Origin: a virus
Lineage: Duplodnaviria > Heunggongvirae > Uroviricota > Caudoviricetes
IMG/VR virus record: IMGVR_UViG_2718217884_000003
Coordinates: 1 to 41,128 of that record
Direction: 5' to 3' (one strand)
DNA: 41,128 nucleotides
A program made the translations under genes and the position numbers. Positions 1 to 39,955 of the stretch are shown piece after piece; the stretch's first letter is position 1; each line of letters starts with the position of its first letter. Below the pieces are notes generated by a model. The model worked only from the letters and a program-made list of their open reading frames with translations, did no database searches and had not been told where the DNA came from.

Positions 1-192
1 TCAGGAGCATTTCTGATTAACGCCACCGTTAAGAATCCACCCCTCAACAGCTTCACGAAGGTATGATTTGGGGTGGGTTCTGACTGGCTTCGGAAATCCG
101 TGCCGTTTGGTATAGTTCCAGATTGTCTGACGTGATGAAACACCGAGCTTGTTCATCACTTCTTTCTCAGGAATCAGGCTGGTATCGGTCAT
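1..192 (-). CDS. xis: Excisionase / AlpA-family DNA-binding protein (Xis-like)
   Basis: 63-aa ORF with RBS GGAG upstream; HTH-like motif (SRQTIWNYTKRHGFPKPV) typical of AlpA/Xis family; position at prophage left arm, integrase expected further left. Confidence 0.65.
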   Translation of the reverse strand: MTDTSLIPEKEVMNKLGVSSRQTIWNYTKRHGFPKPVRTHPKSYLREAVEGWILNGGVNQKCS

Positions 193-269
193 CTTAATTC
201 TCCAGGCAAAAAGAAACCGCCATATAGCGGCTCTATCAGATATGTACAGGCCTCATCGAGTGTGAGGCG

Positions 270-614
270 TTAGTCCTTGCGTAGCTCGCTGATTCTTCTG
301 TAAGTCTCTGGTGCTTTGTTTCCGTGTATCTTCATTTCAGACTTCAACAGAGCAACGAGAGAATCCCATTCGTTGAGGATGCCTTTGAATGCCGGAACGC
401 GCTTTGCAACATTGTCGAATGAATCTCTGATTTCTGGAATCTGCTCAACAAGTGCAACGCATCGCCGGAAATCGGCTGCGTCATGTGGAGCACCGAAGCT
501 ATGACCATAGATATTCTTTTTCAGTCCACATGCGATTGAGGCAAGAGTTGCGCTACTGATGCCGACATCGCCAGTCGATTGCCATTTCAAAACTTTCATA
601 GCCAAATCTGACAT
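270..614 (-). CDS. Hypothetical early-left phage protein
   Basis: 114-aa ORF, RBS GGAG 7 nt upstream of ATG, co-oriented with the early-left operon. Confidence 0.55.
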   Translation of the reverse strand: MSDLAMKVLKWQSTGDVGISSATLASIACGLKKNIYGHSFGAPHDAADFRRCVALVEQIPEIRDSFDNVAKRVPAFKGILNEWDSLVALLKSEMKIHGNKAPETYRRISELRKD

Positions 615-714
615 TTCTTGTCTCCATAAAACAAAACTCGCCGTAGCGAGTTCAGATAAAAGAAATCCCCGCGAGTGCGAGGATTGTTATTCACCTTTGA
701 CGGCAAGTTGTAGG

Positions 715-1494
715 TTAGCCACGGTTAACCTCCTGCGGCGGTTCCGGTAGCCGCATCCAGTGTGACGGCTCACATACCCCCTCAACACCATTCATGTAAA
801 AGAATTGAAATAACCCTTTACCTTTGTGAAACCCTACCATCTGCTCTTTTGTGTCTGAGCAATAAACCAAAACATCTTCTTCGTTCGGCATTCGATCACT
901 ACAGCTTATCCAACTATCCGGAGTTACCGGATAGTTGCGCATTGCGACCTTTAATGCCTCATAGAAGCAACCTTTCAGATTGTTGAACTGACGCCCATTA
1001 AGATGACCGTGTTCAGTAAGCATGTTGCGTAATTTCCATGCCGCGTCGTTTACTTCGTTGGATGACAGGGGAGGCAACTTGTAAGTTTGGCTTACAGGTT
1101 CGGCACCATGAAGCATGGCAGCACGGCAGGCGTTCCAGCCTCTCACCTCTGCAATAGCGGCAACAGCATCAACCGTGTACATGCTAAGAGGATTAGGCAT
1201 TGGTTTTTCTTCCGGTACTACTGGCACTGGAGGGGCGGTATAAAACTTCGTCCCCAGCGGCAACAACTTCATCGCTTTTTCTCCCTTAATGATGCGATAA
1301 GTTGATTTCCCGCCAAGGTCTACCGTTCCATCCATAACAAGGCCGAGTCGCTTCTCTGAAACCTCACCAATAGGCTCTGCTTCCAGCGATGCCAGTGCAA
1401 TTCGTGCCAGTTCCATTTGTTCGCCACGAGTAAGCCCGTTTTCAAGCGGATCTTTAATGAACAATTCAATACGTTCTTTGGTAATAGAATTCAT
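715..1494 (-). CDS. Hypothetical phage protein with DUF551-like C-terminal domain
   Basis: 259-aa ORF, RBS AAGGTG; C-terminal Cys/Trp-rich segment resembles DUF551 found in ea-region proteins of lambdoid phages. Confidence 0.55.
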   Translation of the reverse strand: MNSITKERIELFIKDPLENGLTRGEQMELARIALASLEAEPIGEVSEKRLGLVMDGTVDLGGKSTYRIIKGEKAMKLLPLGTKFYTAPPVPVVPEEKPMPNPLSMYTVDAVAAIAEVRGWNACRAAMLHGAEPVSQTYKLPPLSSNEVNDAAWKLRNMLTEHGHLNGRQFNNLKGCFYEALKVAMRNYPVTPDSWISCSDRMPNEEDVLVYCSDTKEQMVGFHKGKGLFQFFYMNGVEGVCEPSHWMRLPEPPQEVNRG

Positions 1495-1495
1495 G

Positions 1496-1687
1496 CTATT
1501 TCACCTTAATCTCAACATTTCGCAGCTTTAGCTCTACTGGCAGGTCTGACTTTCCGGTTAATGCCAATGCGAGATTTTCTGGAGTAATGAGAGCAGTTAT
1601 TGTTTTCCCCATTGCCAGACGAATAATCATTCGTATCTCGCAATCGTCACATGCTCCAGGTCGAACAATTGATATTTCTCCATTCAT
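1496..1687 (-). CDS. Hypothetical small protein
   Basis: 63-aa ORF with RBS AAGGAG, tightly packed between flanking genes. Confidence 0.5.
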   Translation of the reverse strand: MNGEISIVRPGACDDCEIRMIIRLAMGKTITALITPENLALALTGKSDLPVELKLRNVEIKVK

Positions 1688-37499: not shown

Positions 37500-38176
37500 G
37501 CAAATACACCGAACTGATCACTAACTACCACGCTACCAAGCCACTCTTTTTTGACCATATAGATCTGAGCACCCGCCCGCTGATTGATGTGTCCAGCACT
37601 ATGTCAGGGTTTGTAACAGCCTTCGATATCGATACGGCGGTTGGCGTGCAACTCGATATCCTCGGCCTGTGGATTGGGCGTAGTCGTATAGTCAGCCAGC
37701 CAATTAGCGGCGTTTATTTCAGCTGGGACACTGACGGGCTCGGATATGACCAGGGCATCTGGCAAGGGCCATATGATCCTGATTCTGGCTATACGACGCT
37801 GAGTGATGAGACGTACCGCATCATTCTGAAAGCGAAAATCGCTATCAACAACTGGGATGGTCGGAACGACTCTCTGCCTCCCATCCTTGACGCTGCTACC
37901 GCAGGCTCTGGACTGAAGATGCAGATCGTCGATAACCAGGACATGACGATATCGGTCTGGGTTTTTCCCGAGACTGATATTTCTGATGTGTCACTCGAAC
38001 TGATAGCCGCTATCAAACAGGGTTATCTCACCGTTAAAGCAGCTGGCGTATGGGCTGGGGATGTTGAAACGCCTTCGGTAGAAACACCTTCCGAGGGTTC
38101 TAAATTTTTTGGTTTTGATATGGATAACGAATTCATCAGTGGTTTTGATGTAGGGGCATGGGGGACAATACTCTAA
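37496..38176 (+). CDS. Baseplate/tail protein (gpI / Mu gp48-like)
   Basis: 226-aa ORF with ATGA overlap to the J-like gene. Confidence 0.6.
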   Translation: MSKYTELITNYHATKPLFFDHIDLSTRPLIDVSSTMSGFVTAFDIDTAVGVQLDILGLWIGRSRIVSQPISGVYFSWDTDGLGYDQGIWQGPYDPDSGYTTLSDETYRIILKAKIAINNWDGRNDSLPPILDAATAGSGLKMQIVDNQDMTISVWVFPETDISDVSLELIAAIKQGYLTVKAAGVWAGDVETPSVETPSEGSKFFGFDMDNEFISGFDVGAWGTIL

Positions 38177-38949
38177 TGGCAATAAACAACTTTAAACCTT
38201 TCGCGCTTGATCCGAACGCTAACGTCACCTCACAAGCTGACTGGGAAGCACTTCCGGCTCTGCTTTCAGGGTTTACGGCAGGTAAAGCATCCAGCGCACA
38301 GGTCAACAAAGCTATTCGGCAAGCCAGCTTTATCGCGGCAGCGTTGGCGCAGTACACCGCCAACAAAAGCGGGCTGGATGTGCTTGATGATGGAGACCTG
38401 AACGGGTTTATATCCAAAATGGGGACCGCTTTCGGGAAAGATTTCCAGGCGCTTGATGCCACGCTGTCGGCATTAGCTGGGCTCGCAACAGGTGCAAATA
38501 AACTCCCATATTTCACTGGAAATGATACAGCAGCGCAGACTGATTTAACTTCTGTTGGCCGTGACATTATTGGGAAAAATACTATTGCTGACATTCTCAC
38601 ATACCTTCAATTGGGAGAAGCGGCGAAACGGAATGTTGGCTCAGGGGAGGGACAAGTTCCTGATATGAGTAGTTTTCAGTCAGGTGGCGGGTGGTTTAAG
38701 TTGCCGAGTGGATATGTTATTCAGGCTTTCGAGGCGTCTTTTGATTCTAACGGGCGATATATAAATTTCCCTATACCATTTCCGAGTAGCGTTATGGCTA
38801 TTGTGTCTGGCGTTTTAATGTCATCGACCACCTTTCAACCAATACAATTTATATCAATGCAATATGACACCGATGACCTGACCCGATTTTTTGCTAAATA
38901 CAATACGGGTGGAACGAATGCTTCATACTTTATTGCCATAGGGAGATAA
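38176..38949 (+). CDS. Tail fibre protein
   Basis: Start at ATG 38176 (TAATG overlap); conserved-looking N-terminal anchor and divergent C-terminus; followed by tfa. Confidence 0.65.
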   Translation: MAINNFKPFALDPNANVTSQADWEALPALLSGFTAGKASSAQVNKAIRQASFIAAALAQYTANKSGLDVLDDGDLNGFISKMGTAFGKDFQALDATLSALAGLATGANKLPYFTGNDTAAQTDLTSVGRDIIGKNTIADILTYLQLGEAAKRNVGSGEGQVPDMSSFQSGGGWFKLPSGYVIQAFEASFDSNGRYINFPIPFPSSVMAIVSGVLMSSTTFQPIQFISMQYDTDDLTRFFAKYNTGGTNASYFIAIGR

Positions 38950-38951
38950 CC

Positions 38952-39374
38952 ATGTATTTATTTTCGCCAAGCACATTGGGTTTTTATCCCATCGAGATGA
39001 AAGAAGAATACCTTACCAGTGGTTCATTACCATCTGATGTTGTAGAGGTCTCTGATAGCGTCCGAAATGAATATAACTTTACGCCACCTGAAGGCAAACA
39101 GCTAAGTTCCAGCCAAAATATGCCAGTCTGGATTGATATTCCTCCGGCGACACGTGAAGAGTTAATTGCTGATGCCGAACAAGAACGCCAGAAACTACTG
39201 GCCCATGCTGACGCTGTCATGCTTGACTGGCGTACAGAATTAATGCTCGGTGAAATCAGCGACGCCAACAGGGCTAAACTGTCGGCGTGGTTGGCTTATA
39301 AAAATGAGGTTAAGTCGTGGGATATCAAAACCGATCCTGAGAATGTTAACTGGCCTGTTCCCCCGGTGGTGTAG
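38952..39374 (+). CDS. tfa: Tail fibre assembly protein (Tfa)
   Basis: 140-aa ORF with typical Tfa features (MYLFSP..., C-terminal ...SAWLAYKNEVKSWDIKTDPENVNWPVPP). Confidence 0.8.
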   Translation: MYLFSPSTLGFYPIEMKEEYLTSGSLPSDVVEVSDSVRNEYNFTPPEGKQLSSSQNMPVWIDIPPATREELIADAEQERQKLLAHADAVMLDWRTELMLGEISDANRAKLSAWLAYKNEVKSWDIKTDPENVNWPVPPVV

Positions 39375-39477
39375 GCCATTTAATATCGGGTGCGCTGGTT
39401 GTCTTTACCGCGTCCAGCGCATCCAGATAATCCAGCCACAGATTGTACTGCGCCAGTTCGTCACCTTTAAATCTCAT
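39346..39477 (-). pseudogene. Inverted C-terminal fragment of a second tail fibre assembly gene
   Basis: Minus-strand ...ELAQYNLWLDYLDALDAVKTTSAPDIKWPTPP resembles only the C-terminal third of Tfa proteins; no cognate fibre gene or invertase follows. Confidence 0.5.
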
Positions 39478-39955
39478 CTTTAGGATTTGCAGAAAGGGAG
39501 GTGTAAACAAATACCTGCGCATGAAAACGGAACTAGTCCAGATGTGATGTTTGTGGTGATCACATACATCATCAACGATGCTCGTTATGGTGAGTTTGAT
39601 GACTACCCGCTGAAGTGAAAATTGTGTTGTGTACCAAATTGCGTACCAAACTAAAATCACAAATCATGAAATCCTTGTTCATGGCGGTTCTCAGGGGTGT
39701 TGCGCGTAATCGTGAAACAAAAAGGTAGATTGTTGCTTACCGTCATTCATCATTAGGTTAAATCCGTTATTTCTGCTGTCTGCCAGAGTATCAAATATCA
39801 CCGTGCTAATCAGCTTTAGCGCCACAATTTGGCAGCGAGTGGCAACAGATCATGTCAGATAAAAATGAGAGGGTAGTCACATTTTCTTGCACTTTATTCC
39901 AGCCAGTTCATAAGTATTTCCGTAAAAAGAACAGCTATTTGAAACTCCTGAGGGT

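Follow-up and report, generated by a model that had tools for sequence, protein, structure and literature searches.

Lambdoid phages with a myovirus virion are an already described kind. In Salmonella phage SEN34 (Mikalova et al. 2017), the regulation/replication region is similar to that of lambda-like phages, and electron microscopy of the virions shows a long contractile tail on an icosahedral head (PMC5261728); Casjens and Grose are cited there for a new lambda cluster whose prototype is SEN34 (PMC5261728). Tail lengths reported for SEN34 and for P2-like myoviruses imaged alongside it are roughly 100-150 nm. SEN34 now types the genus Brunovirus, and its relatives are Citrobacter phage Omnitron (CP115737), Escherichia phages vB_EcoM-611R5, 683R1, 606R2, and 689R2, and Hafnia phage yong1. 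In a 2026 study of urinary coliphages, coliphage 923, a myovirus confirmed by transmission electron microscopy, was closest to vB_EcoM-683R1 and SEN34 (PMC12945033). The subject of this study is a DNA stretch of 41,128 nucleotides (IMG/VR record IMGVR_UViG_2718217884_000003; referred to, at its full length, as the window), which we read, with a probability of about 85%, as almost the whole of a single temperate Escherichia coli prophage between sbcB and dacD, lacking its integrase end: a lambdoid mosaic made up chiefly of an HK97/lambda-type control arm, a 20-kb SEN34/Omnitron-type virion block that starts in the 3' end of terS and finishes with Tfa, and, on the right, an att arm of the 2851 type. 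The prophage is a further example of lambdoid module shuffling.

All 61 open reading frames (ORFs) of the window were compared by tblastn (cut-off E<1e-3) with lambda, SfV, Mu, P2, HK97, SEN34, and Omnitron. The 25 structural ORFs from TerL to Tfa all matched SEN34 (SEN34_2 through SEN34_28), in the same order and with 49-97% amino-acid identity; the nucleotide identity of the virion block to SEN34 was 84.6% over 10.5 kb. Nucleotide similarity to Omnitron and SEN34 started in the 3' end of terS (~19262-19313) and ended at ~38400-38600; for SEN34, another short match followed in Tfa. By megablast against a phage collection, bases 20001-38180 were 95.5% identical to Omnitron, ~85% to SEN34, ~83.5% to vB_EcoM-611R5/683R1/606R2/689R2, and 79% to yong1, while bases 1-18268 were made up of mosaic pieces 95-98% identical to many lambdoid siphoviruses and podoviruses, including HK97, HK544, mEp234, Sf6, and Stx phages. 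The genes run leftward in 1-9116 and rightward in 9217-39374. The guanine-plus-cytosine (GC) content is 0.41-0.52 over the first 20 kb and higher, at 0.53-0.58, in the greater part of the second half, where it drops at 34-35 kb and beyond 38 kb. Judged by sequence, the head and tail are one block co-inherited in SEN34, Omnitron, and E. coli prophages; of 5,426 complete E. coli genomes, 385 carry the head genes (20976-25775), 333 of them at no less than 80% coverage.

The proportions of identical bases, estimated from blastn segments, were 35% for SEN34, 43% for Omnitron, 23% for HK97, and 13% for lambda. Membership of Brunovirus would demand at least ~70% nucleotide similarity to SEN34 over the whole genome; by arithmetic on the blastn segments, ~13.8 kb of ~39.7 kb was identical to SEN34 (~35%), and strict membership was rejected. 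Since identity to both SEN34 and Omnitron lies below the 70% genus line, the prophage is related to them through a module and does not form a species of Brunovirus. Its sequence makes it a new mosaic in which every module has close known relatives.

The ends of the element were located from the following features.
1 to 192, minus strand: small Xis/AlpA-like helix-turn-helix protein (weak Phage_AlpA/HTH_17 match)
39469 to 39734, no strand assigned: attR region of the "2851 type" at the right prophage end, with 95.5% identity to the attP annotated in mEp234
from 39956: host gene dacD (Pfam Peptidase_S11)
From 39469 rightward, the window matched features annotated as "duplication due to insertion" at the ends of Stx prophage records. 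Because of this and the match to the mEp234 attP, the prophage end was placed at ~39734, short of the 39900 given in the original prediction. E. coli TB06053 carries the same architecture, likewise inserted at sbcB-dacD: its immunity, replication, Q-tRNA, and virion genes are laid out alike, and its integrase lies immediately to the left of the Xis-like gene. The region 1-192 was 97.8% identical at the nucleotide level to TB06053, whose integrase gene overlaps the corresponding ORF; since the TB06053 integrase sits at that place, the integrase and attL of the present prophage should lie just beyond the left edge of the window.

The control arm contained the following immunity features.
5201 to 5448, minus strand: kil and cIII with an RNA thermometer (cIII 96% and kil 88% identical to lambda)
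5666 to 6136, minus strand: HK97 gp45 homologue (98% identical to HK97)
6195 to 6578, minus strand: N antiterminator of the HK97 type (Pfam N_peptide; 100% identical to HK97)
6827 to 6900, minus strand: pL with the operators OL1-3, the three operators equal to those of lambda and the promoter reading TTGACA-17-GATACT
7073 to 8118, minus strand: HK97 gp48 and gp49 homologues in the rexAB position downstream of cI (100% identical to HK97; phrog_5820 and phrog_26809)
8403 to 9116, minus strand: cI repressor of lambda specificity (amino-acid identity 99.2% to lambda cI, 100% to HK97 cI)
9117 to 9216, no strand assigned: OR3-OR2-OR1 with pRM and pR, 99 of 100 nucleotides equal to lambda
9217 to 9417, plus strand: cro (amino-acid identity 98.5% to lambda Cro, 100% to HK97)
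9555 to 9851, plus strand: cII of the HK97 type (100% identical to HK97, 35% to lambda)

The cI, Cro, OL, and OR were thus all of the lambda type. The sole difference from lambda in OR was a G-to-A change within OR1 (TACCTCTAGCGGTGATA), and HK97 carries the identical change; since HK97 also has identical cI and Cro, the immunity cassette is the HK97 version of that of lambda. In a promoter scan, pR (9164-9192), pL, and a pR'-like promoter (described below) ranked as the top three, and Rfam Lambda_thermo was found at 5390-5448 (84 bits). The elements of the lambdoid order, cIII-N-pL/OL-(rex slot)-cI-OR-cro-cII-O-P-nin-Q-pR'-S-R-Rz, were all present and in sequence. The proposal that the early, immunity, nin, and lysis modules are lambdoid, with lambda immunity, was therefore borne out, by the identities of cI/Cro/OL/OR, the Nin proteins, S, and R (given below), and by Lambda_thermo. 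Homoimmunity with lambda would be expected from this cassette. On the other hand, N, gp45, gp48, gp49, cII, gp53, O, and the DnaB-type P showed no or only weak matches to their lambda counterparts; the HK97-type N in particular had no tblastn match to lambda N. The gp48/gp49 pair is probably co-transcribed with cI in the lysogen and is a candidate exclusion or defence pair; the two PHROG families have no assigned function, and no meaningful PADLOC match was obtained for them.

The virion block encodes the parts of a simple contractile tail.
28048 to 29208, plus strand: tail sheath, DUF3383 (Pfam, 6e-104; XM1 sheath 7kh1, 4e-35; Pam3 sheath 8hdr, 4e-26; phrog_205)
29219 to 29659, plus strand: tail tube, KPP10_Orf10 (Pfam, 6e-60; Pam3 tube, 3e-10)
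29663 to 30276, plus strand: G/GT-like tail assembly chaperone pair (Phage_TAC_15), the zero frame ending at 30088
30266 to 32347, plus strand: tape measure of 693 amino acids with a C-terminal SLT lytic transglycosylase domain (amino acids 527-627, 3e-25)
32347 to 34323, plus strand: inner baseplate, comprising a Dit-like protein, a Pam3_gp18-type plug, and the hub
33259 to 34323, plus strand: the hub itself, E217_GP41 (Pam3 gp19, 1.5e-8; phrog_196)
35206 to 35946, plus strand: spike, Gp138_N with the GpV Apex motif
35946 to 36299, plus strand: gp25/W-like sheath initiator of 117 amino acids (Pam3 gp21, XM1 gp15)
36300 to 37499, plus strand: Baseplate_J wedge (Pfam)
37496 to 38176, plus strand: DUF2612 wedge partner in the I position (XM1 gp17, Pam3 gp23)
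38158 to 39374, plus strand: tail fibre (Gp53-like_C) and Tfa (Caudo_TAP, lambda-gpK-type)

By Pfam, PHROGs, and matches to solved contractile-tail chains, the myovirus gene set of sheath, tube, sheath initiator, wedge and partner, hub, spike, and tape measure was complete, and the tail is predicted to contract. The chaperone gene contained a slippery run, G_GGA_AAT, at 30031, within GGGAAATTTTTTG in the zero frame; the -1 frame was open from this run to 30276, 10 bases beyond the ATG of the tape measure, and its product matched phrog_4364. SEN34 has the identical heptamer and an equivalent conserved -1 ORF, despite a chaperone of only 54% identity, and the corresponding small ORF of TB06053, which lies between the genes for the chaperone and the tape measure, is labelled DUF6889 by PGAP. 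The sheath, the tube, the frameshifted chaperone, and the SLT-bearing tape measure proposed earlier were all recovered by these means (Pfam, PHROGs, sequence matches to PDB chains, and the conserved frameshift).

Two side observations concern the tail genes. The tape measure was 52-57% identical to those of Omnitron and SEN34, the neighbouring genes being 96-100% identical to Omnitron, and nucleotide similarity to Omnitron was lost between 31332 and 32219, a pattern suggesting a patch acquired by recombination within this gene, around the SLT region. A minus-strand ORF at 39346-39660 ends at its C-terminus with ...WLDYLDALDAVKTTSAPDIKWPTPPGEQAS, resembling the C-terminus of the adjoining plus-strand Tfa in inverse orientation; at the counterpart of this position, the TB06053 annotation gives a partial Tfa gene and then a partial S24 peptidase gene. 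The ORF may be what remains of an invertible fibre segment; an invertase is absent.

The original prediction assigned the tail to a Mu/SfV-like module with a Mu/P2-like baseplate, placed on a lambda-type backbone as in SfV-like phages. When the genome comparison that it proposed was run against SfV, Mu, P2, and lambda, no relationship of the virion genes to Mu or SfV appeared except for a few matches. At E<1e-3 in tblastn, the virion ORFs had no match in these four phages other than baseplate J, the fibre, and Tfa: baseplate J with Mu gp47 (29% identity over 42% of the protein), the fibre with lambda, SfV, and P2, and Tfa with SfV. The prophage contained no lambda or HK97 virion gene. By blastn, no bases were common to the window and Mu or P2, and the gene for the R lysozyme was the only stretch shared with SfV. 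Ten SfV virion proteins, scanned against Pfam, fell in Phage_sheath_1, Tail_tube, DNA_circ_N, GpP domains, Mu_Gp45, GP46, Baseplate_J, Mu_Gp48, Phage_capsid (HK97 type), and Phage_portal, and Baseplate_J was the only one of the ten families to recur in the window, where the counterparts were DUF3383, KPP10_Orf10, Dit_like, Pam3_gp18, E217_GP41, Gp138_N/Apex, DUF2612, Major_capside (DUF2184), and Phage_portal_3. The sheath and tube were accordingly DUF3383 and KPP10_Orf10 in place of Phage_sheath_1 and Tail_tube, other families held the positions of DNA_circ_N, GpP, Mu_Gp45, GP46, and Mu_Gp48, and the head (DUF2184/Phage_portal_3) was Pam3/XM1-like, not the HK97-type head that is joined to a Mu-like tail in SfV.

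A tail module of Mu/SfV lineage, or a strict SfV-like phage with an HK97-like head and a Mu-like tail on a lambdoid backbone, would be in keeping with the gene order spike-W-J-I-fibre-Tfa, which parallels Mu gp45-48-S-U, with the likeness of the J protein to Mu gp47 (also matched through the chain 9ki1 at 3e-6), and with the loose usage of "SfV-like" for lambdoid Myoviridae (PMC3603311). However, no further virion ORF matched SfV, Mu, or P2 save the fibre and Tfa, no nucleotide stretch was shared with Mu or P2, nine of the ten SfV virion families were absent, DNA_circ_N among them, the head was of the DUF2184/Pam3 type, and the nearest relatives were SEN34 and Omnitron at 85-95% nucleotide identity. 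The probability of this lineage is close to negligible, and it is already refuted at the level of sequence families. What stands of the earlier assignment is the joining of lambdoid regulation to a contractile-tail module and, for the baseplate, the hub, spike, gp25-like, J-like, and I-position genes in a P2/Mu-like order; the Mu/SfV lineage, the SfV arrangement, and Mu/P2 families other than Baseplate_J do not. The phrase "SfV-like" is, as far as the sequences go, applicable in its loose sense, but not to the protein families.

The terminase, head, and neck genes lie between the lysis genes and the sheath.
18800 to 19351, plus strand: terS, Terminase_2 (7e-40)
19354 to 20976, plus strand: TerL, phrog_2 (98% identical to Omnitron)
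20976 to 25775, plus strand: head genes for the portal (Phage_portal_3), a Mu-F-like head morphogenesis protein, DUF2213, a cement protein, and the major capsid protein
24834 to 25775, plus strand: major capsid protein, Major_capside (DUF2184; Pam3 capsid 8hdt, 3e-18; XM1 7kmx)
25817 to 28044, plus strand: connector and neck genes, comprising DUF4054, Neck1/tail completion, phrog_939, and neck terminator (Pfam, PHROGs)
The cement protein was of the XM1_gp53/E217_gp24 type. TerL had no Pfam-A match at E<0.01, and was identified solely by phrog_2 and the annotations of related records.

Given the change of relatives within the window, we considered two adjoining elements, that is, a lambdoid remnant with early genes only beside an unrelated myovirus prophage or tailocin cluster. 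The GC content steps up from 0.44-0.50 to 0.53-0.58 near 20 kb, and lambdoid similarity stops at 18268 with that to SEN34/Omnitron starting at ~19262, as such a pair might show. However, the genomes of the isolated phages SEN34 and Omnitron (the latter with a circular record) join the same virion block to a lambdoid-type early region in a molecule of ~41 kb; the virion block in the window lacks separate genes for regulation, replication, or lysis; and the single att arm (39469-39734), the integrase at the far left in TB06053, and a total of ~41 kb fit one genome. Two elements are very improbable in our view. The tailocin version was rejected separately because the terminase, portal, and capsid genes are present. 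We therefore retain a single prophage. The joint between its lambdoid arm and SEN34-type block (18268-19313) was occupied by a third kind of sequence: apart from its final ~40-90 bases, terS matched neither Omnitron nor SEN34, and the closest nucleotide match was to the terS of Cronobacter phage phiES15 (81%); a minus-strand ORF of 72 amino acids (18559-18777) had no family match.

The remaining early and late-control genes were as follows.
270 to 3320, minus strand: early-left accessory genes phrog_1229, DUF551 (715-1494), Ead/Ea22-like (1689-2411), phrog_2457, and phrog_4030
3296 to 4995, minus strand: recombination module of DUF2737, Abc2 anti-RecBCD (3474-3767), SSB (3781-4287), and a Rad52/Rad22-type annealase (4288-4995)
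10032 to 10853, plus strand: O-like initiator (Pfam Phage_rep_O; 100% identical to HK97)
10850 to 12226, plus strand: DnaB-type helicase in the P position (Pfam DnaB_C; 99% identical to HK97)
12300 to 15449, plus strand: nin region with NinB, Dam methylase, NinE, NinX (13398-13817), NinF, NinG, NinH, and the NinI phosphatase
15440 to 15965, plus strand: Q antiterminator (Pfam Phage_antitermQ, 1e-25) together with pR'
16023 to 16178, plus strand: tRNA-Asn(GTT) and tRNA-Thr(TGT) in the late leader (ARAGORN, Rfam)
16421 to 17668, plus strand: lysis cassette of S holin, R endolysin, and Rz spanin (S and R 99%, Rz 61% identical to lambda)

The recombination genes were not of the lambda exo/bet/gam type, and the HK97 gp53 homologue was 98-100% identical to HK97. 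In the nin region, NinB, E, F, G, H, and I were 91-100% identical to lambda. Q had no tblastn match to the Q of lambda or HK97; the pR'-like promoter (15936-15965) overlapped the 3' end of Q and matched 11 of 12 consensus positions, and lambda homology restarted directly after tRNA-Thr (16180). TB06053 carries the same Q/pR'/tRNA cassette. An Rfam scan of the whole window returned the cIII thermometer and the two tRNAs and nothing else. Stretches with 89-98% nucleotide identity to lambda totalled 5.3 kb by blastn, and would, judging from this identity, allow productive recombination with lambda.

Several points weigh against an intact, single temperate prophage. The integrase and attL fall outside the window; terS is unlike those of Omnitron and SEN34, so that compatibility of the terminase at the joint is assumed; the terminator scan gave no plus-strand terminator usable as tR' between pR' and S; Rz1 was not located; and the prophage could be non-inducible despite its intact-looking ORFs. 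Many lambdoid prophages of E. coli are defective. The same phage in a domesticated form, giving no plaques and kept for its morons or its immunity, would agree with this, with the position of the integrase and attL outside the window, with the novel combination at the terS/terL joint, and with the right-end fragments of the Tfa gene and, according to the TB06053 annotation, of an S24 peptidase gene. However, every virion ORF aligned over approximately the full length (94-105%) to its SEN34/Omnitron homologue, for which reason the prophage looks intact; there were no frameshifts or stops other than the programmed frameshift, the regulatory genes and operators were intact, and no insertion sequence (IS) elements were present. 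A defective prophage is unlikely on this balance, and an apparently intact temperate prophage is preferred.

It had also been proposed that module boundaries coincide with intrinsic terminators and accessory insertions, for which the following features are relevant.
12252 to 12275, plus strand: intrinsic terminator between P and NinB, where the replication and nin genes meet (tR2 position), made of an 8-bp stem (6 GC pairs) and then TTTTATTT
34336 to 35190, no strand assigned: cassette between the hub and the spike (GC 0.476)
34336 to 34680, plus strand: predicted secreted protein of 114 amino acids, its N-terminus reading as a signal peptide (phrog_3443)
34704 to 34994, minus strand: DUF4236 protein of 96 amino acids with a good Shine-Dalgarno sequence and a hydrophobic C-terminal tail, convergent with the gene for the 114-residue protein

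The switch from HK97-like to lambda-like similarity coincided with the terminator at 12252-12275. The other strong terminator hairpins were also intergenic: 5465-5522 (minus strand) between gp45 and cIII, and 7047-7070 beside OL, where the cI-gp49-gp48 operon ends. In the hub-spike cassette, a strong minus-strand terminator (34680-34698) and a plus-strand terminator (35171-35190) were found. Over the window as a whole, terminator-like motifs were not clearly enriched: 27 against 20.1 ± 5.1 in shuffled sequence for one half and 27 against 20.2 ± 4.2 for the other. The proposal thus holds for a handful of strong hairpins at joints and for the flanked hub-spike insertion, but not as a general rule, the counts not being clearly above those of the shuffles. 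As a further observation, a GC-rich hairpin (CGGCCCCGAAAGGGGCCA) directly after the stop codon of the major capsid gene (25785-25802) was scored on the minus strand only; it may be an mRNA-stabilising or attenuating structure.

Similarity to Omnitron was lost over 34676-35188, and SEN34 and TB06053 hold other ORFs in the hub-spike slot; because of this loss and the differing cargo, the slot looks like a moron hot-spot. We put forward, as a tentative and rather doubtful proposal, that the slot is such a hot-spot and that the convergent pair could be expressed from the repressed prophage for superinfection exclusion or envelope modification; cross-immunity with lambda forms a separate prediction within the same proposal. 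A literature search on DUF4236 found no functional study, and PADLOC gave no defence-system match at a meaningful E-value among ten accessory ORFs, including the gp48/gp49 pair and the hub-spike morons.

What is known of lambda and of contractile tails suggests a life cycle in which inducibility, contraction, lambda homoimmunity, and terminator read-through are all predicted by analogy. cI bound to OL and OR would keep the prophage silent until its RecA-stimulated self-cleavage in the SOS response derepresses pL and pR. N would then act as an antiterminator, O and the helicase would replicate the genome, and Q would load at pR'. A single Q-antiterminated late transcript would cover the two tRNAs and the lysis, terminase, head, neck, and tail genes, including the virion operon of ~20 kb, and would pass through the embedded terminators, those within the moron cassette among them. 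A -1 slip at G_GGA_AAT is expected to yield GT, and the G/GT-like chaperones would assemble the tube on the tape measure. At adsorption, the fibres would trigger the baseplate, the sheath would contract, and the tube and Apex-tipped spike would be driven through the envelope, with the SLT domain of the tape measure cutting peptidoglycan.

Compared with known phages, the prophage has the same plan as SEN34 and Omnitron, that is, a lambdoid early, nin, Q, and lysis arm joined to a myovirus virion; the contractile tail of SEN34 was seen on particles, whereas that of the prophage is known here from genes alone. The early arm of SEN34 is of other ancestry, giving no tblastn match to cI, cro, cII, and N of the window, and SEN34 has a lambda-P-type replication protein in place of the DnaB-type one. 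SEN34 and Omnitron also differ from the window in terS, the centre of the tape measure, the hub-spike cargo, the fibre tip, and the integration module. Lambda and HK97 differ in their virion genes, in exo/bet/gam, and in the type of Q, and the window adds two tRNAs downstream of pR'; lambda integrates at attB-lambda, whereas the att/int type of the window is 2851 (sbcB-dacD). An exact lambda/HK97 immunity cassette thus circulates on a SEN34-type myovirus chassis, with head genes in ~7% of complete E. coli genomes, which predicts cross-immunity between the siphovirus lambda and a contractile-tailed phage; variable accessory genes sit in the hub-spike slot.

The likeness to the SfV-like phages (SfV, SfI, and ST64B) consists of lambdoid regulation with a contractile tail, a similar baseplate order, and Baseplate_J, whereas the sheath, tube, hub, spike, W-like, I-like, portal, and capsid families differ; in SfV, the head is HK97-like and the tail, which includes a DNA-circulation protein, is Mu-like, and the window has neither. 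With Mu and P2, the likeness is one of order, spike-W-J-I-fibre-Tfa paralleling V-W-J-I-H-G of P2 and gp45-48-S-U of Mu. The labels "Mu-like" and "SfV-like" should be avoided for such prophages. Among solved structures, the closest to the virion are those of Vibrio phage XM1 (7kh1/7kmx) and cyanophage Pam3 (8hdr/7yfz/8hdt), both of which match the sheath, the sheath initiator, the two wedge proteins, and the capsid of the window; Pam3 chains also match the tube and hub, and weaker matches were found to Pseudomonas phage E217 (8env/8eon). XM1, Pam3, and E217 also give their names to the Pfam families of the plug, cement, and hub proteins. These three phages are distant (E-values from 1e-35 to 1e-3), are unrelated outside the virion genes, and have no lambdoid backbone, but most of the tail proteins can be matched by sequence to solved chains of XM1 and Pam3.

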